From: Clostridia bacterium
GTDB lineage: Bacteria > Bacillota > Clostridia > Christensenellales > Aristaeellaceae
Length of the DNA stretch: 64,000 nt
Assembly: GCA_017517465.1 (NCBI GenBank)
Contig: JAFWYZ010000018.1
Span: 13,704-77,703 of the forward strand
Direction: 5' to 3'
The notes under the pieces were generated by a model, which was given only the letters and a program-made list of their open reading frames with translations, ran no database searches and was not told the DNA's origin. Of the stretch, positions 1 through 36,866 are shown in pieces. Position numbers and translations under genes: made by a program. Positions within the stretch are counted from its first letter, which is position 1. Every line of letters starts with the position of its first letter.

Positions 1-2528
1 AGGCGCACGTCCACGCCTTCGCGTTCCGCAGCGTCACGGGCAGTGGCATCGGGACGGATATTGAAGCCGATGATGATGGCATTGAAGGCGGAGGCCAGGT
101 TCACGTCGTCCTGGGTGATGGCACCCACGGCGCTGTGCAGCACGCGCACCTTCACTTCGTCGTTGCTCAGCTTTTCCAGGGCCTGCTTCACCGCTTCCAC
201 GGAGCCCTGCACGTCGGCCTTGATGATGATATTCAGGTTGACCACCTTGCCCTCGGCAATGCCGGCAAACAGGTTATCCAGAGACACCTTGGCAGAAGCA
301 GCCACACGGCTGGCCTTCAGCTTATCCTTACGTTCCTGGGCCACCTGACGGGACAGATGGTCGTCCTTGACGGCCAGCATTTCATCGCCGGCAGAAGGCA
401 CTTCGGTGAAACCGGAAATTTCCACAGGCATGGAGGGACCGGCGGTCTGTACACGTTCGCCGCGGTCATTGAGCATAGCGCGCACACGGCCGGAAGCCAT
501 ACCGGCCACGATATTGTCGCCCACCTTCAGGGTACCGTTCTGGATCAGCACGGTAGCCAGAGGACCGCGGGCCTTATCCAGCTTGGCTTCGATGATAACA
601 CCGGTGGCCATACGGTCGGGGTTGGCGCGCAACTGCTGCACGTCTGCCTGGAGCAGGATCATTTCCAGCAGGTCATCCACGCCCTGACCGGTCAATGCGG
701 AAACGGGCACCATAATGGTTTCGCCGCCCCAGTCTTCGGGGATCAGTTCGTACTTGGTCAGATCCTGCATAATGCGGTCGGGGTTGGCAGTGGGCTTATC
801 CATCTTGTTGATGGCCACAATGATGGGCACGCCGGCAGCCTTGGCATGATTGATGGATTCCACAGTCTGGGGCATCACACCGTCATCGGCAGCCACCACC
901 AGGATGGCGATGTCCGTTGCCTGGGTACCGCGCATACGCATGGCGGTGAAGGCTTCGTGGCCGGGGGTATCCAGGAAGGTAATCTGACGGCCGTCCAGGT
1001 TCACGGTATAGGCACCAATGTGCTGGGTAATACCGCCGGCTTCGGTGGTGGTCACATGGGCCTTGCGGATATAGTCCAGCAAGGAGGTCTTGCCGTGGTC
1101 AACGTGGCCCATGATGGTAATAACGGGAGGACGGGACTGAAGATCTTCTTCCTTGTCTTCCACATTGGTGTCGGACAGCACGTCTTCCGCCGTCTTATCC
1201 AGCTTCATTTCCAGTTCCACATCAAATTCGGAGCAGACCAGGGAAGCAGTATCGAAATCCAGTTCGCTGTTGATATTGGCCATGATGCCCAGCATCAGAA
1301 GCTTCTTGAGGATTTCACCGGCGGGCTTACCGATGCGTTCGGTCATGTCCTTGACGGTGATGGTTTCCGCCGTCATATAGGCCTTTTCGATCTTGATGGG
1401 GGCCATCATCTGCTGGGCAGAGGGCTGCTGCTTCTTGCTGGCCCGGGCACGCTTGCCGCCGCGGACGGTTTCATCATCGTAGCCGGTGAAGCTTTCCTTC
1501 TGCAGCTGCTTGCGGTTCTTGGAAACATGTTCCGGGTCATGCTGACGCAGATACTGCTTCTTGTTGGGATCGTAATTGCTGACCCTTTCCTTTTCCACCA
1601 CAGGGGCCAGTTCCGGACCGCGGCTGCGGCCTGCACCGCCCATGGGACGGCCTGCGCCGCCACCCTGCTGGGGACGGGGAGCGCCGCCGGCGGGACGGCC
1701 AAACTGACCGCCACTCTGCTGGCCGGCAGGACGGCCGAACTGCTGTCCGCCCTGAGGATTGGCGGGACGGCCAAACTGCTGCCCACCCTGAGGATTGGCA
1801 GGACGGCCGTAGGGGCCCTGAGGATTGGCAGGACGGCCATAGGGGCCCTGGGGATTGGCAGGACGGCCATAGGGGCCCTGGGGATTGGCGGGACGGCCGT
1901 AGGGGCCCTGGGGATTGGCGGGACGGCCATAGGGACCCTGAGGATTGGCAGGACGGCCATAGGGGCCCTGAGGACGGGCACCCTGCTGCTGGGGAGCAGC
2001 AGGACGGGCCTGGCCCTGCACAGGACGGGCAGGGGCGGCAGGCGCAGCCTGCTGTGCAGCGGGAGCAGCCGGCTTTTCTTCCTTCACAGGGGCAGCCTTT
2101 TCTTCTTTCTTTTCTGCAGCGGGAACAGCAGGCTTTTCGACAGGCTTTTCTTCCTTTGCCGCAGGAGCAGCTTCCTTCTTTGCAGGCTTTTCAACCGGCT
2201 TTTCTTCCTTCACGGGAGCAGCCTTTTCCACAGGCTTTTCGGCCGGCTTTTCTTCTTTCTTTTCGGGGGCAGCTTCCTGCTTGGGCGCTGCTTCCTCTTC
2301 ATCAGGCATGGTCCAGGCCTTCGTATGCTGCTGCGCCAGGATCTTCTGTTCTTCCTGATGCTTGCGGGCCTGTTCTTCTTCCTGTTCGCGCTGGAAGCGG
2401 ACTTCCTGCTTGCGCAAGGACTGCATCAGCGTATCAATATTACGCCGGATATGCGCAGCCTCTTCCAGGATCACGCCGGACTGCTGATTGATTTCTTTTG
2501 TAGCTTCTGCCAGTTTTACCTTGGTCAT
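1..2528 (-). CDS. infB: Translation initiation factor IF-2 (C-terminal end lies beyond the left window edge)
   Basis: The minus-strand frame from ATG at 2528 ([18 protein letters not shown]...) is open to position 1. It carries the G-domain motifs [22 protein letters not shown] and NKMD. It is absent from the ORF track because its stop is outside the window. It is the last gene in the conserved rimP-nusA-ylxR-ylxQ-infB order. Confidence 0.95.
1685..1978 (-). repeat. In-frame tandem repeats inside the infB N-terminal region (degenerate 36-bp units followed by about six 30-bp units)
   Basis: Head-to-tail units of the type cctgaggattggcaggacggccataggggc. They translate on the minus strand to ([10 protein letters not shown])n preceded by [12 protein letters not shown] units. 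Confidence 0.85.
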
Positions 2529-2570: not shown

Positions 2571-2885
2571 TTATGTCAACGGCTCTTCCGTTTGATTGAG
2601 CAACCGCAGGATCTGGTCGCAAATGCCGCCTTTTTTCAGGCAGGCAGCCATACGTCCTTCCCTGCCGCAGGCCCTGTCCAGCAGGCCCGCTTCCATGATA
2701 TGCATGGGCACCCGGCGATAAGCACAGGCGTCCGAAAGCTTCTTTCTGGTGTTTTCGGATGCATCCTGATCCACCAGTACAAGGGCCGCTTTTTGGGCCT
2801 TGATTTCCCGCAGCGCCAGATCTGCGCCTGCCGTCAGCTGCCCGGCCCGCATAGCCAGGCCCAGAAGCCCGTCAATCTTCGCCAT
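2571..2885 (-). CDS. ylxQ: L7Ae/YlxQ-family RNA-binding protein
   Basis: This is the internal part of track ORF 2571..2960. A GGAGGG RBS sits 5 nt upstream of the ATG at 2885 (MAKIDGLLGLAMRAGQLTAG...). It has an L7Ae-like sequence and lies between ylxR and infB. Confidence 0.8.
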   Translation of the reverse strand: MAKIDGLLGLAMRAGQLTAGADLALREIKAQKAALVLVDQDASENTRKKLSDACAYRRVPMHIMEAGLLDRACGREGRMAACLKKGGICDQILRLLNQTEEPLT

Positions 2886-3159
2886 CCTGGCCCTCCAGGC
2901 TTTCCAGCTGAGCAAGCAGCGCGGCATGGGTTTCTTCCCCCAGTGTGCAGGAGAATGCACGCTCCAGCTGCTTTTGCTTCAATGCCTTTTTCAGGCATTC
3001 GGCATTGCGGCACACATAAGCGCCCCGGCCCGGCTTTCTGCCCGTCACATCCATGGACACTGCCCCTTCAGGGGAGCGCACCACACGGATGAGGCTTTTC
3101 TTGGGCTGCATTTCCCGGCACCCCACACACATGCGCATGGGTGTTTTTCTTTCTTTCAT
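2872..3159 (-). CDS. ylxR: YlxR/RnpM family (DUF448) RNA-binding protein
   Basis: 95 aa, with MRMCVGCREMQPKKSLIRVV typical of DUF448. It lies directly downstream of nusA. Confidence 0.85.
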   Translation of the reverse strand: MKERKTPMRMCVGCREMQPKKSLIRVVRSPEGAVSMDVTGRKPGRGAYVCRNAECLKKALKQKQLERAFSCTLGEETHAALLAQLESLEGQDGED

Positions 3160-3184
3160 GGCGCTTTGTCACCTTCTGTTCTGC

Positions 3185-4366
3185 TTATTCGATATCGTCA
3201 TCATCCAGGGGGATATCCAGATAATCGTCTTCGTATTCGTCGGCGATCACCTGACCGTCACCCATCTTCAGCTCGGGCAGTTCCAGCTGCATCAGTTCGG
3301 CAGCCTGGGTCTGGGACTTGATGTCGATCTTCCAGCCGGTCAGCTTGGCCGCCAGACGGGCATTCTGGCCTTCCTTGCCGATGGCCAGGGACAGCTGGTT
3401 ATCCATCACGATCACGCGGCAGATCTTTTCCTTTTCGGACACATACACACTGACCACGTGAGCGGGGTTCAGGGCGTTGGCCACGAATTCGGCAGGATCG
3501 GCGCTCCACTTGATGATGTCGATCTTTTCGTTCTTCAGTTCGCTGACCACCTTGTCCACACGGATACCGCGGGGGCCCACGCAGGCGCCTACGGGATCGA
3601 TGGCGGCATCGGAGGAGGCCACGGCAATCTTGGTACGGCTGCCGGCTTCACGGGCGATGGACTTGATCTGCACGATACCGGTGGCAATTTCCGGCACTTC
3701 CATTTCAAACAGGCGCTTGACCAGGCCGGTATGCACACGGCTGACCGCCACCTGGGGACCGCCGGCTTCACGGCCGGCACGGTACACCTGCAGCACATAC
3801 ACCTTGATATGATCGCCGGGACGGTATTCTTCGCCTGGCATGAATTCGTTCTTGTTCAGGATACCGCGGGTGGTGCCCAGCTCCACATACACGTTTTCTG
3901 CGTCCACACGTTCCACGATACCGGTGAGGATTTCGTTTTCCTTTTCGATGTATTCGTCGTAGATCTTGCCCTTTTCCATGTCGCGCATGCGCTGGAGAAT
4001 GACCTGCTTGGCAGTCTGGGCAGCCACACGGCCAAAGTCCTTGGGGGTCACTTCGATTTCCACGATATCACCCAGTTCGAAATTGGGACGGATGCTGCGG
4101 GCCGCTTCCAGGGAGATCTGCAGATTATCGTCTTCCACCACTTCGGAAACCACCTTGCGGGCAAAGATCTGCACGTCGTGTTCACGGCTGATGACCACGG
4201 ACAGGTTGGAGGAGGTTTCGTTCTGAGCGGCGGTATACTTGGCATACTTGCGGTAAGCAGCCTTGCAGCCGTCTTCCACAGCAGAGCGGATCTGCTCTAC
4301 GGGAATATCCTTGGCCTTGGCCAGATTTTCAATCGCATCATACATTTCGGACTTGCGGTTTGCCAT
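3185..4366 (-). CDS. nusA: Transcription termination/antitermination factor NusA
   Basis: 393 aa. It has an S1 domain and two KH domains (GACVGPRGIRV, AIGKEGQNARLAAKLTGWKIDI). Operon context supports the call. Confidence 0.95.
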   Translation of the reverse strand: MANRKSEMYDAIENLAKAKDIPVEQIRSAVEDGCKAAYRKYAKYTAAQNETSSNLSVVISREHDVQIFARKVVSEVVEDDNLQISLEAARSIRPNFELGDIVEIEVTPKDFGRVAAQTAKQVILQRMRDMEKGKIYDEYIEKENEILTGIVERVDAENVYVELGTTRGILNKNEFMPGEEYRPGDHIKVYVLQVYRAGREAGGPQVAVSRVHTGLVKRLFEMEVPEIATGIVQIKSIAREAGSRTKIAVASSDAAIDPVGACVGPRGIRVDKVVSELKNEKIDIIKWSADPAEFVANALNPAHVVSVYVSEKEKICRVIVMDNQLSLAIGKEGQNARLAAKLTGWKIDIKSQTQAAELMQLELPELKMGDGQVIADEYEDDYLDIPLDDDDIE

Positions 4367-7379: not shown

Positions 7380-8591
7380 ATGAAGAAGTTCATTCCGCTG
7401 TTTTTATTGCTGCTATGTGTGTGCCTTCCCGCTTTTGCTGAGGAAGCAAGGGATATGACCGCCGATTGCGAGATCACCCTCTCCCCCGGCAAATACAAAA
7501 CCCTTGACCGCATCTGCGACCGGGACTGGCACACCATCTACCTCAGCAACAAAATGAAATCCCCTTCCGTCACCGTAAAAGCCCCCAAGGGGGAGGCCAT
7601 GCAGGGCGTGTACGTGTGCTTCGGGGACAAGCTGGCCCCCTGGCAGGTGCAGGAAAAGCAGGACGGAAAATGGGTGACCGTTTTTGAAAGCGAAGGGCTG
7701 TATGCCCACGAATATGCGCCGGTGAACGGTGCCAGGGAAATCCGCATCCTGCCAAAGAGCACCAAGCAAACCACCCTTTGCATCGGTGAGCTGTTTGTAT
7801 ACGGCGAAGGCGATCTGCCCTCCACCGTGCAGTTCTGGCAGCCTGCCCCGGAAAAGGCGGATATCCTCTTTCTGGCGGCACACCCCGATGATGAGGTGCT
7901 GTTTTTCGGCGGCGCCATCCCCTATTACGCCGGAGAAAAGCAGATGGACGTTGCCGTGGTGTACATGACCTGCAACCTGATGGAACGCAGAAGCGAGCTG
8001 CTCAACGGCCTGTGGACCTGCGGTGTGAAAACCTACCCAGTCGTTGCTGATTTCTGGGATAAATATGCCACCAAGGTGGACAAGATCTATGATGCCTGGG
8101 GCAAAACCGCTTCCCAGAAGTTCATCGTGGAGCAGCTGCGCCGGTTCAAGCCGGAAGTGGTGGTCACCCATGATACCAACGGCGAATACGGCCACGGTGC
8201 ACACAAAACCTGCGCCGATTTGATGCTCAAATGCATCCCCATGGCAGCCGGCACCGCCAAGTTCACCGATTCCCTGAACACCTGGGGTGCATGGGAAGTA
8301 AAGAAGCTGTACCTGCATCTGTATCCCGAAAATGCCATCGAAATGGACTGGGATCAGCCCCTTTCCGCTTTCGACGGCAAAACCGGCTACGAAATGGCCG
8401 TGGAGGGCTACAACTGGCACTTCTCTCAGCATGATCAGGGCCAGAAGAACAAGGAAACCGGAAAATTTGAATATTTCATCGTAGAGCCCAGGGACAGCGA
8501 TTACAGCTGCTACCGCTTCGGCCTTGCCCACACTACTGTGGGCCCCGATGTGGAAAAGAACGATTTCTTTGAGAACATCCCGATGGAATGA
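7380..8591 (+). CDS. Secreted PIG-L/LmbE-family deacetylase
   Basis: 403 aa. It has an N-terminal signal peptide (MKKFIPLFLLLLCVCLPAFA) and the motifs AHPDDEVLFFGG and HDTNGEYGHGAHK. A good RBS is present. Confidence 0.8.
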   Translation: MKKFIPLFLLLLCVCLPAFAEEARDMTADCEITLSPGKYKTLDRICDRDWHTIYLSNKMKSPSVTVKAPKGEAMQGVYVCFGDKLAPWQVQEKQDGKWVTVFESEGLYAHEYAPVNGAREIRILPKSTKQTTLCIGELFVYGEGDLPSTVQFWQPAPEKADILFLAAHPDDEVLFFGGAIPYYAGEKQMDVAVVYMTCNLMERRSELLNGLWTCGVKTYPVVADFWDKYATKVDKIYDAWGKTASQKFIVEQLRRFKPEVVVTHDTNGEYGHGAHKTCADLMLKCIPMAAGTAKFTDSLNTWGAWEVKKLYLHLYPENAIEMDWDQPLSAFDGKTGYEMAVEGYNWHFSQHDQGQKNKETGKFEYFIVEPRDSDYSCYRFGLAHTTVGPDVEKNDFFENIPME

Positions 8592-8738
8592 CGGAGCAGG
8601 GGGGCTCCTCGCCCCCCATACCCCCACCAGGGGCATCGCCCCTGGACCCATTTTGCGACACACAATCGTATTAACCAAAGTATTTTCCGCATGTTGCTTG
8701 GGGGAACGGGAAGAGAGCCCACGGGCGCTATGAAAACG

Positions 8739-8786
8739 AAAAAAAGAGCGGCTGAGAGAATGCGTTCTCTCACCGCTTCTTTTTTG
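8739..8786. terminator. Bidirectional intrinsic terminator inside mosaic copy A
   Basis: An A-run, then the stem agcggctgagaga/tctctcaccgct (one bulge), then a T-run. Confidence 0.55.
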
Positions 8787-8934
8787 TCGTTTTCCCCGGA
8801 TGCAAAGCATCCGGTCGGCGGCATTTTGCCGCCATGCCCGTGTGCGGGCGCCAGTGGCGCACCCAATTCGCAAAAACACATTCGTTCTCTGCAAAAGTAT
8901 GTGTGCATGTTACTTTGTTTCACCGGGACATTGT
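8739..8934 (-). ncRNA. Candidate structured small RNA (copy A): conserved 5' box, four consecutive hairpins, intrinsic terminator
   Basis: On the minus strand: ACAATGTCCCGGTG box, hairpins at 8848-8860, 8836-8849, 8817-8833 and 8796-8814, then the terminator. It is paralogous to 22359-22546 with compensatory stem changes. No expression evidence is available from the sequence alone. Confidence 0.25.
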
Positions 8935-9022
8935 CTGTATGATATGAATTGATGTTTCCGGAGAAAGGGTGCAGGGATGATATCCCTGCTGGGGTGGGGG
9001 CGAAGCCCCGCATCGTCTCTCC

Positions 9023-9526
9023 TCACTCCATCTCCATGGTGTAATAGGTGGCATCAAATGTTTCGCTGCCGTCATAGCGGCTGTACTGACCCAAGTGGCT
9101 GAACTGATAGCCGCATTTCTTCAGCACATTCCCGGATGCCACATTGGCCGTAGCATGGCGAGCCATGAAGCGGCGGGCACCATGCTCATATGCCCATTGC
9201 AGCAGGGCCCTGGCAGCTTCGGTGGCATAGCCCTTGCCCCAACAATCCTTTCGAAGATTGTAACCCACTTCCCAGGCATCAAATTCTTCCCTGTATTTGA
9301 TGGAACCGGCACCGATCAGCTGTCCCGTTTCCTTCTGGCAGAAGCCAAACTCCTCTTCTTTCCCCTGCAGGGAGCGCAGCCAATCTTTTGTTTCTTCCAC
9401 GTTTTTATGCACAGGATAGGGCATATAGCGGTTTACTGCGGGATCACCCGTCCATTGAAACACCGCTTCCCCATCCGCTTCCGTCATAGGCCGCAGGATC
9501 AGCCTTTCTGTTTCGATCAAGCTCAT
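9023..9526 (-). CDS. GNAT family N-acetyltransferase (RimJ/RimL-like)
   Basis: 167 aa, with ERLILRPMTEADGEAVFQW and GKGYATEAARALLQWAY. Confidence 0.85.
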   Translation of the reverse strand: MSLIETERLILRPMTEADGEAVFQWTGDPAVNRYMPYPVHKNVEETKDWLRSLQGKEEEFGFCQKETGQLIGAGSIKYREEFDAWEVGYNLRKDCWGKGYATEAARALLQWAYEHGARRFMARHATANVASGNVLKKCGYQFSHLGQYSRYDGSETFDATYYTMEME

Positions 9527-20873: not shown

Positions 20874-22139
20874 TCACGCATCTGCCGTTTTTTGATGCAT
20901 CAGAAAGGAAATCAGGCACACAACCAGCGTTACCACATGCCCCACCATATGGGCATAGCCTGCACCGAAAATGCCCTGTTCTTTGGTCCACAGCCAGGTG
21001 AGCCCCAAGGTCACCCCCGCCCCCATCAGCCCGGCATAAAAGCTTTTCCTTTGCAGGCCCAGCCCGGCCATGATGCCGGACAGCACCTGCTGCACCGGCA
21101 AAAAGGCTGCCAGCGGGCTCATCACCTGTAACAGATTTCCCACCTCCGGCAATCCATACAGCCTTTCCCCGATCCAGAACGCAAACCCATACAGCACCCC
21201 GGCGCAAATACAGCCCGCCAGTGCCGCCGTCAGCAAAAGCCGCTCCGTCATCCTGCGCTGCCGGGCACAGGAGGTGCATCCAGCCACCGCCGGTGTGCTT
21301 ACCGTGCCCAGTGCACCAGAAAAAATGCCGGGCAGAAAAATCATGGGCATCACCATGCCGTTGAGCATGCCCATCCGGCTGATGGCCTCTGCATGGCTCA
21401 GCCCAGAAGCGCACAGCCGCAGGGGGATCATCACGCTGCATATGGTGCGCAGCAGGGTGTGGCTCAGCCGGTTCAGGGTGATGGGCAGTGCCTGGCGGAA
21501 CAATTGCTTCTCCACCGGCGCTTTTTCCTTTTCCCCAGGCCTCAGCCACAAGGCGATCAGGCAAAGCCCCATGCCCTCCCCCAGCACCGTGGCAAATGCC
21601 GCCACCGCTGCCCGCCAGCCCACCGTCAGCCGGGAAACCAGCACACCTGCCCCCAGCACAACCGTCAGCCGCACCATCTGCTCTGTCATTTCGCAGAATG
21701 CCGGCGGCCAGGCATTACCCCGGCCCAGGCTGTACCCCCGATATACACCGGACAGGCCAATCAGCAGCACACAGGGGGCATACATGAACAGGGAGGGCAA
21801 TATCCGCTCATCCCCCATCAGCCTTGCAATCACCGGAGCAAATACCAGCAGCCCACCGCCCATCAAAAGCCCCAGCCGCAGTGCCATTTTTCGGGCTGCC
21901 AGCAGGACCCCTTCCTTGTTTTCCGTCTGTGCCGTCATCCGGCTCACGGCCGTGGGCAGCCCTGCCGCAGCCGGTGTCAGGGCCAGCATATGCGCCTGCC
22001 CTGCCAGCTCCATCACGCCCACCGCTTCCGGCCCCAGCAGCCGGGCTGTGATCAGCCGCAGCACAAACCCCAGCCCGCGGATGCCCACATTGCATGCTGC
22101 CATCACCGCCGTCTGTTTCTTCAGGCTCTGTTTCTTCAT
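20874..22139 (-). CDS. MOP-superfamily polysaccharide/lipid-II-type flippase (SpoVB/MurJ/Wzx-like)
   Basis: A GGAGGG RBS favours the ATG at 22139 (MKKQSLKKQTAVMAACNVGIRGLGFVLRLITARLLGPEAVG). It is a polytopic membrane protein. Confidence 0.75.
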   Translation of the reverse strand: MKKQSLKKQTAVMAACNVGIRGLGFVLRLITARLLGPEAVGVMELAGQAHMLALTPAAAGLPTAVSRMTAQTENKEGVLLAARKMALRLGLLMGGGLLVFAPVIARLMGDERILPSLFMYAPCVLLIGLSGVYRGYSLGRGNAWPPAFCEMTEQMVRLTVVLGAGVLVSRLTVGWRAAVAAFATVLGEGMGLCLIALWLRPGEKEKAPVEKQLFRQALPITLNRLSHTLLRTICSVMIPLRLCASGLSHAEAISRMGMLNGMVMPMIFLPGIFSGALGTVSTPAVAGCTSCARQRRMTERLLLTAALAGCICAGVLYGFAFWIGERLYGLPEVGNLLQVMSPLAAFLPVQQVLSGIMAGLGLQRKSFYAGLMGAGVTLGLTWLWTKEQGIFGAGYAHMVGHVVTLVVCLISFLMHQKTADA

Positions 22140-22358
22140 GCCCATCCCTCCCCGGCACAATCTATGCCGGTTTTATAGATAGCATGACAAAGGACCAGAG
22201 GCATCGCCCCTGAACCCTTTCTCCGGATATTGCAGTTTATATCACGCAAACAATTTCCCGGTGGAATTTGAAGAGACCAGGGGGGCTTCGCCCCTCCACC
22301 CCAGCAGGGACACTGTCCCTGCACCCAGTACCTAAAGCAACTTGGCTCTATCTTCCAA

Positions 22359-22546
22359 ACAATGTCCCGGTGCAACAAAGCACCACGCAGAAATCCATTC
22401 GCAGAGGAAGATTGTTTTTTTGAATCGGCTGCGGCACTGCCGCCCACGGGCTGGCGGTGTGAAACACCGCCGACCGGATGCTGTGCATCCGGGGAAAATG
22501 AGAAAAAACCGGCAGGAAAGTTCACTTTCCTGACCGGCTTTTTTCT
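22359..22546 (+). ncRNA. Candidate structured small RNA (copy B): conserved 5' box, hairpins, intrinsic terminator
   Basis: ACAATGTCCCGGTG box, hairpins at 22431-22443, 22442-22451, 22453-22471 and 22474-22492, then the terminator ccggcaggaaagt/actttcctgaccgg plus a T-run at 22503-22546. No expression evidence is available from the sequence. Confidence 0.25.
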
Positions 22547-22576
22547 ACATTTTCATTGCGCCCGTGGGCACTCTTT

Positions 22577-22928
22577 CCGTTTCCCTCAAGCAACATACGG
22601 AAAACAGATTGTGGATCAGTTTTGTTCTTCGAAGAACGGGTGCAGGGCCGATGGCCCTGCCGTGGGGGTACGGGGGGTGAGGAGCCCCCTGCTCCGTTTC
22701 CCCAAGCAACATGCGGAAGATGTTTGAAGAAGCAGTCTTCTGCATCGCAGAACGGGTGCAGGGCCGATGGCCCTGCCGTGGGGGGTACGGGGGGCGAGGA
22801 GCCCCCTGCTCCGTTTCCCCAGGCAACATGCGGAAAGAAGAATGGAAAAGCAGACTTCTGCGTCGCAGAACGGGTCCAGGGGCAATGCCCCCGGTGCGGG
22901 GGTGTGGGGGGCTGAGCAGGCCCCCGAA
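22577..22928 (+). repeat. Three tandem 117-bp units
   Basis: The motif ccgtttccc(c) recurs at 22577, 22694 and 22811. Each unit has CCGTTTCCCCAAGCAACATGCGGAA, a variable hairpin, GAACGGGTGCAGGGCCGATGGCCCTGCCGTGGGG and GGGGGGYGAGGAGCCCCC. Confidence 0.85.
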
Positions 22929-22951
22929 GGTGCCCCCTGCCCCGTTATTCC

Positions 22952-24922
22952 TTAAGCCTGACGGCCGATGGTAGCCTTGATGCGGCGCACACCGGCGGAA
23001 GAGGATTCTTCCTTCTGGATCTTGAAGGACACCAGATCGCCGGTATTGGACGCATGGGGGCCGCCGCAGATTTCCTTGGAATATTCACCCATGGTGTACA
23101 CCTTCACGCGTTCGCCGTACTTGCTTTCGAACAGGCCCATAGCGCCCTGTTCCTTGGCTTCGGCAACGGTCATTTCTTCCAGGGTGACGGGCACCTTGGC
23201 TTCGATGGCCACGTTCACCAGCCGTTCCACTTCCTTCACTTCTTCGGGGGTCATTTTCCGGCCGAAGGTAAAGTCAAAGCGGAGACGTTCGGCAGTGATA
23301 TTGGAGCCCTTCTGGTGCACTTCGTCACCCAGCACTTTCCGCAGGGCAGCCTGCAGAAGGTGGGTAGCGGTATGCAGGCAGGCCGTCTGTTCGCTGTTAT
23401 CGGCCAGACCGCCCTTGAACTTCTGTTCAGCGCCCTGATGACTCTTTTCCTGATGCTGCTTGAAGCGTTCGTCAAAGTCCGCCTTATCCACGGAGAGACC
23501 CTTTTCGGCAGCCAGTTCCATGGTCATTTCAATGGGGAAGCCGAAGGTGTCATACAGCTTGAACGCGCTGCGGCCATCCAGCACGGTGAGGGAAGCCATG
23601 CGGGCTTCCACAGCGGCAACCAGCGCATTTTCATCACCGGCATTGGCAGCTTCGATGATGGGCATCATGTCGGGAGAGGGGCGCAGCTTCTTGATCTTGG
23701 CCATTTCCTGGGCAAAGGCCACCTTGTTTTCGTTGGCCAGAATGCTTTCCAGCAGGGCCTTGGTATTCATGGTGTTGTTGTACACCTTTTCGAATTCCTT
23801 TTCACCCTGCTTCAGGGTACGGGCAAAGCGTTCTTCTTCCAGCTTCAGCTGTTCCAGCACGAAAGCGCTGTTGTCCTTCAGTTCGGGGTACACTTCGCAG
23901 TACTGGTCAATGATCACCTTAGCCAGTTCGCAGGTGAAACCGTCCTGCAGGCCCAGGCTCATGCCATAGCGCACGGCACGGCGGATAAGACGGCGCAGGA
24001 TGTAGCCCTGGTCCACATTGGAGGGGGATACACCGCGGGGGTCACCCAGGATGAAGGTGGAGGTACGCATATGGTCGGCAATGATGCGGAAAGCCTTGGT
24101 GTTTTCATCACCGGGGATGTACTTCTTGCCGCTCAGCTCTTCAATGCGGCCCAGGATGTGGGCAAAGATTTCGGTTTCATACACGCTCTTCACGCCGTTG
24201 AGCACGCAGATGGTGCGTTCCAGGCCCATGCCGGTGTCCACGTTCTGCTGAGCCAGGGGAATGAAGGTGCCATCCTGCTGCTTGTTGTACTGCATGAACA
24301 CGTCGTTCCAGATTTCCAGATAAGCGCCGCACTTGCAGGCAGGAGAGCAATTGGGGCCGCAGGGCTCCTTGGTGATGATGAACATTTCGGTATCGGGACC
24401 GCAGGGGCCGGTCACACCGGCAGGGCCCCACCAGTTGTGTTCCTTGGGCAGGTAGAACAGATGGTCTTCCTTCACACCGCAGGCGCGCCAGAGATTGGCC
24501 GCTTCTTCATCCCGGGGGCAGTCTTCATCGCCTTCGAAAACGGTGAAGGCCAGCTTGTCGGGATCAATGCCCAGCCATTCCTTGCCGGTGAGGAATTCCC
24601 AGCTCCAGGGGATCATTTCCTTCTTGAAATAATCGCCCAGGCTCCAGTTGCCCAGCATTTCGAAGAAGGTCAGGTGGGAAGGATCGCCCACGTCATCGAT
24701 GTCACCGGTGCGGATACACTTTTGCACGTCGGTAAGCCTCGTGCCGGCAGGATGCTTCTGGCCCAGCAGATAGGGAACCAGGGGATGCATACCGGCGGTG
24801 GTGAAAAGCACGGTGGGATCGTTTTCGGGGATCAGGGAAGCAGAGGGGATCAGCTGATGGCCCTTTTCCTGGAAGAAACGCAGGAACAGCGCACGCAGCT
24901 CATTGGCGGTCAAGGCTTTCAT
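22952..24922 (-). CDS. alaS: Alanine--tRNA ligase, short form (catalytic, tRNA-recognition and editing domains; no C-Ala domain)
   Basis: 656 aa, with FTTAGMHPLVPY, QKCIRTGDIDDVG and HLTFFEMLGNWSLGDYFK. The editing-site motifs HTATHLLQ and CGGPHASNTGD are present. The protein ends about 30 aa after the editing domain. Confidence 0.9.
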   Translation of the reverse strand: MKALTANELRALFLRFFQEKGHQLIPSASLIPENDPTVLFTTAGMHPLVPYLLGQKHPAGTRLTDVQKCIRTGDIDDVGDPSHLTFFEMLGNWSLGDYFKKEMIPWSWEFLTGKEWLGIDPDKLAFTVFEGDEDCPRDEEAANLWRACGVKEDHLFYLPKEHNWWGPAGVTGPCGPDTEMFIITKEPCGPNCSPACKCGAYLEIWNDVFMQYNKQQDGTFIPLAQQNVDTGMGLERTICVLNGVKSVYETEIFAHILGRIEELSGKKYIPGDENTKAFRIIADHMRTSTFILGDPRGVSPSNVDQGYILRRLIRRAVRYGMSLGLQDGFTCELAKVIIDQYCEVYPELKDNSAFVLEQLKLEEERFARTLKQGEKEFEKVYNNTMNTKALLESILANENKVAFAQEMAKIKKLRPSPDMMPIIEAANAGDENALVAAVEARMASLTVLDGRSAFKLYDTFGFPIEMTMELAAEKGLSVDKADFDERFKQHQEKSHQGAEQKFKGGLADNSEQTACLHTATHLLQAALRKVLGDEVHQKGSNITAERLRFDFTFGRKMTPEEVKEVERLVNVAIEAKVPVTLEEMTVAEAKEQGAMGLFESKYGERVKVYTMGEYSKEICGGPHASNTGDLVSFKIQKEESSSAGVRRIKATIGRQA

Positions 24923-29907: not shown

Positions 29908-30987
29908 TTACATAATAACTTTTTCGGTATCGCCGTCAAAAAGATACACATTTTCCACCGGAATGAAGAACCGGATTTCCTCATCCATTGCCGGTATCTC
30001 ATGGGGCGTTACTTTCAGAATGGATTTATCCTGAGCAATATCCACATACACATTGGCATTATCGCCCAGCATTTCCGTCAGCTCCACCATGCCCTGAAGG
30101 GCATAGGCATTCTCCTGCTCATGCAGGGTGATGGCCTCGGGACGGAAACCGAACACAATCTCTTTCCCTTCGTATTCCTTCACCTTTTCCCCCATCTTCA
30201 GGGAAAGATCCAGCTGGCTTTCGCCCACCTGAATGCAGCCGTTTTCCACCTTGCGGCGGATGAAATTCATGGGCGGCTCCCCGATGAACCCAGCCACAAA
30301 CATGTTCACGGGATTGAAATACACATCCCGGGGGGTACCGATCTGCTGCACATAGCCATCCTTCATCACCACGATCCGGTCCGCCATGGTCATGGCCTCG
30401 GTCTGGTCATGGGTCACATAGATGGTGGTGGCGCCGGTTTCCCGGTGGATCTGGGTGATCTCGGAGCGCATGGTAACACGCTGTTTGGCGTCCAGGTTGG
30501 ACAGCGGTTCGTCCATCAGAAACACGCCCACCTTGCGGATGATGGAGCGGCCCACCGCCACACGCTGGCGCTGACCGCCGGACAGGGCACGGGGCATGCG
30601 GTCCAGATAATCGGTGAGACCCAGGATCTTAGCCGTTTTCTGCACGCGCTCGTCAATCACGTCTTCGTCCACCCCCTGCAGGGACAGGCCGAAGGCCAGA
30701 TTGTCATACACCGTCATGTTGGGGTAAAGGGCATAGCTCTGGAACACCATGGCCACTTCCCTTTCCCGGGGCCCCCACTGATTGGCCACTTCCCCATTGA
30801 TGAGGAATTCACCCTTGCTGATGTCCTCCAGCCCGGCGATCATCCGCAGCGTGGTGGATTTGCCGCAGCCGGAAGGGCCAACGAACACGATAAACTCACC
30901 CTTTTCCGCTTCCAGGTTGAAATCGTGCACCGCATGGAAACCGTTGGGGTAGATTTTGTTGATGTCTTTGAGCGTCAGATATGCCAT
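29908..30987 (-). CDS. Carbohydrate ABC transporter ATP-binding protein (MalK/MsmX/UgpC type), copy 1
   Basis: Walker A GPSGCGKST, signature LSGGQRQRVA, Walker B FLMDEPLSNLD. RBS spacing favours the ATG at 30987 over 30993. Confidence 0.9.
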   Translation of the reverse strand: MAYLTLKDINKIYPNGFHAVHDFNLEAEKGEFIVFVGPSGCGKSTTLRMIAGLEDISKGEFLINGEVANQWGPREREVAMVFQSYALYPNMTVYDNLAFGLSLQGVDEDVIDERVQKTAKILGLTDYLDRMPRALSGGQRQRVAVGRSIIRKVGVFLMDEPLSNLDAKQRVTMRSEITQIHRETGATTIYVTHDQTEAMTMADRIVVMKDGYVQQIGTPRDVYFNPVNMFVAGFIGEPPMNFIRRKVENGCIQVGESQLDLSLKMGEKVKEYEGKEIVFGFRPEAITLHEQENAYALQGMVELTEMLGDNANVYVDIAQDKSILKVTPHEIPAMDEEIRFFIPVENVYLFDGDTEKVIM

Positions 30988-35792: not shown

Positions 35793-36866
35793 TTATCTGA
35801 TGGCATTGGTGGTTTCCCGGTCGAAGAAATGCCGCTTTACAAACTGCACCTTCACCGTATCACCGGCCTTATAATCACACCAGCCCCGCAGCTTGCAGGT
35901 GATGGCAGCATCGGCGGCATGGGCATTATTCAGCCGGCCGTGCACCAGGGTGTTCATGCCCAGGTTTTCATTGGAATACACACAAACGGATATATCCCCG
36001 CCTTCGTCCACATCTTCGGGACGCACACCCAGGGTTACTTCCTTGCCTTCATAGCCCGCCAGCAGTTCCCGTTCCTTTTCCGTCAGCGCAACGGAGAAAT
36101 ACTGGTTCACTGCCTTGCCGTTTGCTATATTCACATTGAAGAAATTCATGGGCGGCAGGCCGATGAAGCTGGCCACAAACAGATTGGCAGGGGTATCATA
36201 CAACTCCAGCGGCGTGCCCACCTGCTGCACCCGGCCCATGGACATGCACACAATCCGGTCTGCCAGGGTGAGAGCCTCCGTCTGGTCATGGGTCACATAG
36301 AGCATGGTGGCATGCATGCGCTTGTGCAAAAGCAGAATTTCACGGCGGGTGGCACCGCGCAGCTTGGCATCCAGGTTGGACAGGGGTTCGTCAAAGAGGA
36401 ACACCTTGGGGTTGCGCACAATGGCACGGCCCATGGCCACGCGCTGGCGCTGACCGCCGGACAGCTGCTTGGGCTTTTTGTTCAATTGATCCGTCAGGCC
36501 CAGAATTTCTGCCGCAGCCAGCACTTTTTTATGGATCACATTGGGGTCTTCCTTACGCAGTGTCAGGGAAAATGCCATGTTTTCATACACCGTCATATGG
36601 CCGTACAAGGCGTAATTCTGGAACACCATGGCCATATCGCGATCCTTGGCCGGAGCGGTGGTGATATCCTTTCCATCCAGCAAAAGACGGCCGGCGGAGA
36701 TATCTTCCAGCCCGGCCACCATGCGCAGCGTGGTGCTCTTTCCGCAGCCGGAAGGCCCCACCAGCACAATAAATTCGCCGTCCTTCACTTCCAGATTGAA
36801 GTCAAACACAGCCTGTACTTTATTATCGTAAATCTTATCCAGATGCTGTAAGCTGATATTGGCCAT
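35793..36866 (-). CDS. Carbohydrate ABC transporter ATP-binding protein (MalK/MsmX type), copy 2
   Basis: 357 aa, with GPSGCGKST, LSGGQRQRVAMGRA and FLFDEPLSNLD. A C-terminal MalK-like regulatory domain is present. Confidence 0.9.
   Translation of the reverse strand: MANISLQHLDKIYDNKVQAVFDFNLEVKDGEFIVLVGPSGCGKSTTLRMVAGLEDISAGRLLLDGKDITTAPAKDRDMAMVFQNYALYGHMTVYENMAFSLTLRKEDPNVIHKKVLAAAEILGLTDQLNKKPKQLSGGQRQRVAMGRAIVRNPKVFLFDEPLSNLDAKLRGATRREILLLHKRMHATMLYVTHDQTEALTLADRIVCMSMGRVQQVGTPLELYDTPANLFVASFIGLPPMNFFNVNIANGKAVNQYFSVALTEKERELLAGYEGKEVTLGVRPEDVDEGGDISVCVYSNENLGMNTLVHGRLNNAHAADAAITCKLRGWCDYKAGDTVKVQFVKRHFFDRETTNAIR

Follow-up and report, generated by a model that had tools for sequence, protein, structure and literature searches.

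An undescribed intergenic mosaic repeat with a compound palindromic core in a lineage of uncultured Clostridia

The window analysed here, a stretch of 64,000 nucleotides, contains two similar intergenic sequences on opposite strands, which we call copy A and copy B. Both consist of hairpins that are kept while their sequences change, and they raise the question whether such conservation reflects an RNA gene or the DNA itself. The original prediction favoured a small RNA of about 190 nt with its own promoter, a DNA hairpin being the alternative. We show below that copies A and B are two members of an undescribed, lineage-restricted, non-coding intergenic mosaic repeat that resembles REP, BIME and MITE elements. 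Most likely it is selfish DNA that also stops transcription in both directions, and is not a small-RNA gene; a stand-alone small RNA is unlikely.

Anatomy of the repeat

The individual sequence features on which the prediction was based were all found. The shared box, ACAATGTCCCGGTG, begins at 22359 (plus strand) in copy B and at 8934 (minus strand) in copy A, with a -10-like hexamer just upstream (TATCTT and TATCAT, respectively); TATCTT of copy B ends 4 nt before the box. Paired changes distinguish hairpin P2 (GGCGGTG/CACCGCC in copy B versus GGCGGCA/TGCCGCC in copy A) and hairpin P0 (GCGGC/GCCGC versus GCGCC/GGCGC). Hairpin P3, CCGGATGC-nnn-GCATCCGG, has an invariant stem and a variable loop in the two copies, and the terminator-like hairpins have unrelated stem sequences, one bulged base each and a T-run behind them. 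With folding z-scores of -7.1 to -8.2 on either strand, the structure is far beyond chance.

The assumption of a single pair of copies did not survive. In the assembly to which the window belongs (2.46 Mb, 317 contigs, 54% G+C, 95% complete) blastn gave 57 matches to the element. An iterated nhmmer profile gave 65 core-containing matches, of which 40 have the core in full and 21 are interrupted where a contig ends. The family size in this assembly is therefore about 50-65 copies. Approximately 10% of the contig ends fall inside a module of the repeat, and together with the 21 interrupted cores this explains the poor assembly of these rumen and gut MAGs.

The similarity also exceeds the limits first drawn. 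The hairpins lie where they were reported, but loci A and B are about 80% alike over about 400 nt rather than 190, and in blastn every part of both mosaics has roughly 40 to over 100 genome matches, the match depth dropping to 0 at both edges of the locus B mosaic. Repeated DNA spans 22194-22925 and 8585-9020, so the entire gaps between the neighbouring genes are made of repeats. The features of the two loci are:

Locus A
7380-8591, plus strand: PIG-L-family gene (Pfam), convergent with the GNAT gene
8585-9020, no strand: whole mosaic between the PIG-L-family and GNAT genes (depth profile, Pfam)
8717-8845, minus strand: core of copy A, four-way junction (covariance-model match, 130.5 bits; fold), co-directional with the GNAT gene
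9023-9526, minus strand: GNAT gene (Pfam)

Locus B
20874-22160, minus strand: Polysacc_synt/flippase-like gene (Pfam)
22194-22925, no strand: whole repeat mosaic between alaS and the flippase-like gene (blastn depth, Pfam)
22194-22217: half copy of module M1
22240-22265: second, diverged copy of the 5' box
22275-22327, minus strand: module M1, a GC-rich double hairpin, inverted; upstream terminal inverted repeat of the composite (106 genome matches)
22345-22372, plus strand: 5' box (TATCTTCCAAACAATGTCCCGGTG), conserved in the 38-copy alignment
22383-22441, plus strand: one sub-repeat unit of about 65 nt, ending in P0 (94 units in the genome)
22429-22441: P0, hairpin GCGGC-ACT-GCCGC
22442-22569, plus strand: core of copy B, four-way junction (covariance-model match, 130.6 bits; minimum-energy fold on both strands)
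22442-22451 with 22560-22569: P1, 10-bp closing helix
22453-22471: P2, short hairpin GGCGGTG/CACCGCC
22474-22492: P3, short hairpin CCGGATGC/GCATCCGG
22494-22554, either strand: P4, long hairpin GAAAATG...CATTTTC with a GC-rich apical stem between an A-tract and a T-tract
22570-22606, plus strand: tail module TTCCG-TTTCCCTCAAGCAACATA-CGGAA, conserved in alignments, opening each 117-nt unit
22577-22928, plus strand: three tandem 117-nt units of tail, spacer and M1 (repeat families D3 and D8; depth about 80 to over 100)
22952-24922, minus strand: alaS (Pfam)

The consecutive hairpins described before are present, but the helix that encloses them had been missed. Alignment of 38 full copies, folded with RNAalifold, revealed the long-range helix P1 (GCCCACGGGC ... 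GCCCGTGGGC) around P2, P3 and P4, making the core a 128-nt compound palindrome. As P1 closes P2-P4, the two strands can adopt an identical four-way junction, in DNA as well as in RNA. This junction is the minimum-energy fold of both the plus and the minus strand of copy B, and copy A also folds in this way. P4 has the general form of a base GAAAAYG/CRTTTTC, an A-tract that pairs with a T-tract, and a GC-rich, variable apex.

Around the core the modules recur in a common arrangement. The 65-nt sub-repeats occur in tandem runs of 1-4, with P0 in three covarying versions, and the tail of the mosaics is generally TTCCG...CAAGCAACATGCGGAA. Among the 26 loci having both unique flanks, most composites start with a reverse M1 and end with a forward M1, at boundaries that are approximate as they were set by blast depth. 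The composites are 320-810 nt long and non-coding. Coding potential was considered and rejected: the ATG in the box of copy A reaches a stop after 3 codons, copy B has a stop 3 codons into the antisense open reading frame that copy A has at 8691-8942, and the indels between copies are not multiples of three. No tRNA or tmRNA was found in the 64-kb window.

Covariation and equivalence of the strands

The original prediction held that structure rather than sequence is conserved, and proposed testing covariation on more copies. This claim was strongly upheld. In an alignment of 60 copies from 5 species, all of them related copies, 94.4% of the cells pair, compared with 42-49% when the partners are slid, and 203 cells carry a double change versus 72 in shuffles, a value that 0 of 500 shuffles reach. 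Covariance model R1 gave 82 strong matches in loci from about 17 rumen and gut MAGs; in these likewise related copies, aligned by fitting to the model and in many loci found with P3 as the search pattern, 96.6% of the cells pair and 28 of the 41 base pairs change on both sides (shuffle mean 17; equalled in 0 of 500).

Every helix of the core covaries. The outer stem of P4 alternates between UA and CG, and in a large subfamily P1 reads GCUUCUGGCC/GGCCAGAAGC instead of GCCCACGGGC/GCCCGUGGGC, both arms having changed together. In one species P3 is CCGGAGGG/CCCUCCGG.

The pairs themselves show little sign of a preferred strand. Watson-Crick pairs make up 97% of the paired cells and G:U pairs 1.2%; G:U (43 cells) is hardly commoner than A:C (28 cells). 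Sense and antisense strand fold equally well. In addition, the hairpin loops of P2, P3 and P4 occur as reverse-complement pairs, while the simple reverse or complement is absent or rare:

P3 loops: AAA in 32, TTT in 30
P2 loops: GAA in 68, TTC in 13
P4 centre loops: TC in 29, GA in 12; TT in 26, AA in 12; GT in 8, AC in 7

The scarcity of G:U, the equal folding of the strands and the flipped loops speak for the DNA level, or at any rate for strand equivalence, and the DNA hairpin that had been named as an alternative fits better than a small RNA. The excess of G:U over A:C tilts slightly towards a strand-specific fold.

Template switching between the arms of an inverted repeat is described as homogenising the arms and inverting the spacer (PMC8604942), and by another account it can give rise to perfectly paired hairpins and preserve them by changes that look compensatory (PMC8794818). 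Since the process can mimic compensatory change, the covariation, though real, is by itself no proof of selection on RNA. We propose two causes for the retained pairing. The hairpins would be needed for termination, for protection of 3' ends and probably for spread, and template switching would homogenise the palindrome arms, thereby maintaining them at the DNA level and also flipping the loops. The repeat is a warning for covariation-based discovery of non-coding RNA: it has textbook compensatory changes in every helix, yet the signs point to DNA. The loop flips, the near-absence of wobble pairs and the strand equivalence argue for palindrome dynamics and terminator use rather than for a dedicated RNA gene.

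Terminator-like arm and gene context

The hairpin at the end of each copy had been read as an intrinsic terminator of one strand. A hairpin with a T-run is indeed there, but the A-run in front of it pairs with the T-run, so the hairpin is terminator-like on both strands. On the sense strand the stem of P4, with one bulge, is followed by CTTTTTT or CTCTTTTTTT, and a consensus scan calls a terminator-like P4 site on the antisense strand of copies A and B. At the sequence level, each strand thus has a GC-rich hairpin directly followed by a T-run. We read P4, whose GC-rich stem has an A-tract on one side and a T-tract on the other, as a predicted bidirectional intrinsic (Rho-independent) terminator. 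It shares with such terminators its build, its location between convergent genes and its presence at sites where relatives have a plain terminator, but differs in being embedded in a conserved three-helix junction that occurs in about 65 copies with shared flanking modules.

No -35/-10 pair or sigma-70-like site was found by consensus scan at loci A and B. On the minus strand, which carries both neighbours of locus B, the locus follows alaS and precedes the flippase-like gene; copy B is thus antisense to all transcription nearby. A census of 83 copies, using genes from a codon-based home-made caller that was retrained and checked against alaS and Pfam, placed 35 copies in convergent-gene gaps (11.9 expected, about threefold enrichment), 42 in co-directional gaps (59.6 expected) and 6 in divergent-gene gaps (11.5 expected); these orientation counts are approximate because the caller misses some short genes, for example the GNAT gene at 9023-9526. 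Across the 83 copies there was no strand preference relative to the neighbouring genes, the co-directional copies being 19 sense and 23 antisense (p = 0.64). The convergent enrichment, the lack of strand bias and the lack of a promoter argue for an element of 3' ends and terminator regions that works either way, and not for a promoter-driven small RNA.

These results bear directly on the reading as multicopy, stand-alone small RNAs, each about 190 nt long. Their promoter would lie immediately before ACAATGTCCCGGTG, and P4 would terminate them. The conserved 5' box with TATCWT upstream would suit such a transcript, as would the very stable covarying fold that closes with a hairpin and a T-run, and the slight G:U excess on the sense strand. 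However, the scan found no -35/-10 pair, and the box is missing from many copies, which begin with additional sub-repeats. The even orientation, the preference for convergent gaps, the antisense fold of equal quality and the reverse-complemented loops also speak against it, no Rfam relative was found, and the element is one building block of a mosaic that occurs in high copy between genes. We regard this reading as quite improbable, and the claim of a small RNA with its own promoter is not sustained.

Indifference to orientation would also be expected of a protein-binding or architectural DNA site, comparable to the sites of gyrase on BIMEs or of IHF. A host protein might bind P3 (CCGGATGC-N3-GCATCCGG), P2 and the 65-nt sub-repeats, or a junction-binding protein might bind the extruded cruciform. 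P3 and P2 are perfect dyads of conserved sequence with free spacers, and the sub-repeats stand in tandem like iterons. No candidate protein was identified, though, and binding of a dimer does not explain the covariation of P1 and P4. Some species of the genus appear to be without the element, which argues against an essential architectural role. In our view such a site is very unlikely.

It is on balance probable that the repeat is selfish or domesticated intergenic DNA that replaces ordinary terminators and is transcribed only passively. According to this model the core, a compound DNA palindrome in which hairpins P2, P3 and P4 are closed by the 10-bp inverted repeat P1, would move within larger mosaics composed of the 5' box, 1-4 tandem 65-nt sub-repeats, the core, the tail and an inverted M1 at both ends. 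The mosaics would settle at the 3' ends of genes, foremost between convergent genes, and displace the ordinary terminators there; their transcription would be purely passive and in either orientation, in the form of the 3' ends of mRNAs from adjacent genes. If P4 terminates as predicted, a sizeable share of the convergent gene pairs depends on a selfish repeat as terminator.

Some observations count against the reading as selfish DNA with a terminator function. A terminator role explains P4 and not the tight preservation of P1-P3 and the junction, and in one orthologous pair the core is identical while the flanks have diverged. The four-way junction might instead be what a new structure-specific system of mobilisation or maintenance acts on. 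Such a system could be an enzyme that would recognise the folded, cloverleaf-like single strand in the way that IS200/IS605 TnpA or integron integrases recognise hairpins; or the junction might be an RNA domain functional at mRNA 3' ends. We consider this unlikely; if true, uncultured rumen Clostridia would harbour a structured mobile element of a new class.

Distribution, relatives and mobility

Blastn found the element in 16 of the 24 other species of the genus that were searched, and the model added one species that blastn had missed. Outside the genus, the 150 genomes of the family yielded single copies in two other genera, and among 150 genomes of the order no match was found in the 145 genomes from the other 41 families. 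The carriers are MAGs of uncultured Clostridiales, Clostridia and Christensenellaceae from the guts of cattle, goat, sheep and deer. Copy number is patchy among close species of the one genus, from none found by blastn or model in G006 (98% complete, 40 contigs) to about 65. We found no paper on repeats of Christensenellaceae-like rumen bacteria.

Searches of phage and plasmid collections with blastn gave no match to the element. One IMG/VR contig of 4.3 kb (IMGVR_UViG_3300028591_007245, our locus L224) carries an intergenic copy with a full core of the GCUUCUGGCC subfamily at 1962-2088 (minus strand; 121 bits with covariance model R2), and on the same contig lies a weak phage-capsid-like open reading frame (2695-3981, minus strand). 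This combination indicates that a (pro)phage can carry the repeat.

Comparison of orthologous sites revealed both presence and absence. Behind alaS, the site contains a plain terminator in two congeners, and a small gene plus a terminator in a third; more distant relatives from metagenomes have a plain terminator or other sequence there, free of mosaic modules. In the closest species (locus L189, G011:C89, 3440-3745) a small gene stands in place of the mosaic behind alaS; it encodes a glycine-rich membrane protein of about 80 aa and has a plain terminator after it. A 35-mer from the 3' end of alaS had no metagenome match, and a degenerate pattern retrieved relatives, four of them about 81-82% identical over this end of alaS, none with core or M1 downstream. 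Strain-level empty sites of locus A were sought by exact-protein look-ups of both flanking genes, which found nothing.

The related species G010 has 12 copies in 400 kb, several of them orthologous to copies in the window's own genome (G000) at 83-96% identity. At G010:C58:19091 a degenerate element is present where contig C113 of G000 has only a bidirectional terminator, AAGCACCGG-cat-CCGGTGCTTTTTT, and at G010:C69:76197 a full mosaic stands in place of 222 unrelated bases between flanks that are 97% identical. Orthologous copies differ by blocks, showing block-wise exchange of modules, and internal modules recombine freely. In one orthologous pair the 5' half is identical over about 190 nt and P4 has been exchanged, with compensatory differences in its outer stem. 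The similarity of locus A to its 'orthologous' copy in G010 is as low as 61%, a sign that the repeat may have been rearranged or replaced. The synteny of the two genomes breaks exactly at the locus A mosaic (8585-9020 in the window versus G010:C58:65668-71905), one flank matching contig C160 and the other contig C165 of G000.

The mosaic has much in common with REP and BIME sequences of Enterobacteria and Pseudomonas. These are likewise high-copy, GC-rich extragenic palindromes that are clustered in both orientations, joined by conserved linker motifs into mosaics, and sited at gene 3' ends and between convergent genes, with proposed roles in termination and in protection of mRNA 3' ends; here the extragenic palindromes in alternating orientation number 65 cores and 106 M1. 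Unlike REP sequences, however, the repeat resides in a genome in which no RAYT/Y1 gene was found, has no GTAG/CGTC tag (no GTAG is visible in M1 or the core), belongs to a Firmicutes-type Clostridia lineage and shows no sequence similarity to them, and where REP has a hairpin of 20-40 nt its core forms a four-way junction of 128 nt with a terminator-like arm. BIME-like mosaic repeats are hereby extended to an uncultured Firmicutes-type lineage, in which the multibranch core is unusually elaborate.

Modular, non-coding intergenic elements of about 100-800 nt are also known as BOX (Streptococcus pneumoniae, boxA-boxB(n)-boxC), RUP, Correia/NEMIS, ERIC and bcr1 (Bacillus cereus group). The present repeat shares with them an internal module in variable tandem number, here the 65-nt sub-repeat in 1-4 units, and very stable predicted folds. 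Its sequence is unrelated, its set of modules is different, and it has a covarying multibranch core and a built-in bidirectional terminator-like arm. Correia and RUP elements have a target-site duplication, whereas none was seen for this repeat, neither in the comparison of orthologous sites nor at the boundaries of the composites. The inverted M1 modules provide the terminal inverted repeats of a MITE, but this missing duplication and the lack of a related autonomous IS with matching ends set the repeat apart from that class.

Rfam 15 contained no family at gathering threshold on the element, and a permissive scan (22100-23000, E up to 10) gave sub-threshold matches only. The best of these, wcaG RNA (22236-22330, minus strand, 24.5 bits versus a threshold of 42, E = 0.033), lies on M1 and not on the core, and is most likely a chance resemblance between two GC hairpins. 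The possibility, raised with the prediction, that the element belongs to a described REP, MITE or Rfam family was borne out in its behaviour, which is REP/MITE-like, but no described family and no Rfam model was matched. Covariance model R2 can be used to mask or annotate about 1% of the genome.

In search of a mobilising partner we found no match to Y1/RAYT (PF01797) in the window's own 95%-complete genome, nor to reverse transcriptase (PF00078) or IS110 transposase (PF01548), and the assembly contained no multi-copy coding element and no autonomous IS with ends like those of the repeat. MAG assemblies often lose IS copies, so the absence of a parent IS is not proven. In the genus, Y1 genes are present in 15 of the 39 genomes, uncorrelated with the element, and the two Y1 loci that were inspected resemble ordinary IS200-type elements. 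As these Y1 genes do not track the element, it is solely the patchy distribution and the presence or absence at orthologous sites that suggest mobility.

At one locus in G010 (L233, G010:C74:20376-23732, at about 1430-2860) an IS200-like Y1 gene and an AT-rich open reading frame of about 257 aa abut a truncated core, which keeps only TTTCATTGTGCCCGTGG, the tail and M1. Upstream of this tnpA is a perfect 32-nt palindrome, CAGCGCATGTTGCATA|TATGCAACATGCGCTG. The 10-mer GCAACATGCG is common to the tail motif of the mosaic and this palindrome; a second occurrence of GCAACATGCG near a Y1 gene lies inside a coding region. The 10-mer may tie the IS200-like tnpA to the mosaic, a connection that we regard as unproven.

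A rival reading is that of a non-autonomous transposon, in which an enzyme provided in trans would recognise either the inverted M1 ends or the folded junction, the latter as RNA or single-stranded DNA, with the terminator arm as incidental cargo or a device for target choice. That inverted M1 modules bound the composites is in line with this, and so are the range of copy numbers within the genus, from none found in the 98%-complete G006 to about 65, and the copy on the IMG/VR contig beside the capsid-like open reading frame. The stem of P3 is nearly invariant, as for a protein recognition site, and P1 differs between subfamilies on both arms together, like terminal inverted repeats. Nevertheless, target-site duplications and a multi-copy coding element are missing, Y1, reverse transcriptase and IS110 genes were not found in the genome, and Y1 in the genus is uncorrelated with the element. 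Many copies occupy orthologous sites in two species at 83-96% identity, arguing that transposition is not recent or frequent. We therefore consider a transposon of this kind doubtful.

An orphan scaffold of a transposon guide RNA (TnpB/IscB omega-RNA or IS110 bridge RNA) or a retron-like non-coding RNA is hardly credible. The element is multi-stemmed, multicopy and 130-260 nt long, with variable sequence just downstream, as such a scaffold would be. Its strands are equivalent, though, no HEARO, omega-RNA or other Rfam model matched, IS110 and reverse transcriptase genes were absent from the searches of the genome, and no cognate nuclease, recombinase or reverse transcriptase lies adjacent. The sole TnpB-like gene, the single PF07282 match, was rejected as a partner: it is Cas12f-like, belongs to a small CRISPR locus on another contig (C67), and no copy of the element is present there.

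That locus (G000 contig C67:4756-7512, our L214) contains a frame of 553 aa with a Cas12f1-like/TnpB zinc-ribbon domain (PF07282, 84 bits) and, about 220 nt past the domain match, five copies of a repeat of about 32 nt spaced about 66 nt apart. It is probably a compact type V CRISPR-Cas locus.

Three further features of the window were recorded. A T-box leader (RF00230, 57301-57518, minus strand, 105.3 bits) is the sole Rfam family at gathering score in the window. Tandem repeats of 30, 36 and 48 nt are present at 1689-2277, among them seven copies of the 30-nt period at 1756-2025; the periods are in-frame, so these repeats probably code for a repetitive low-complexity protein segment. The stretches 30238-30936 and 36117-36815 resemble each other at 71-78%, the distance between matching positions being 5879 nt throughout.
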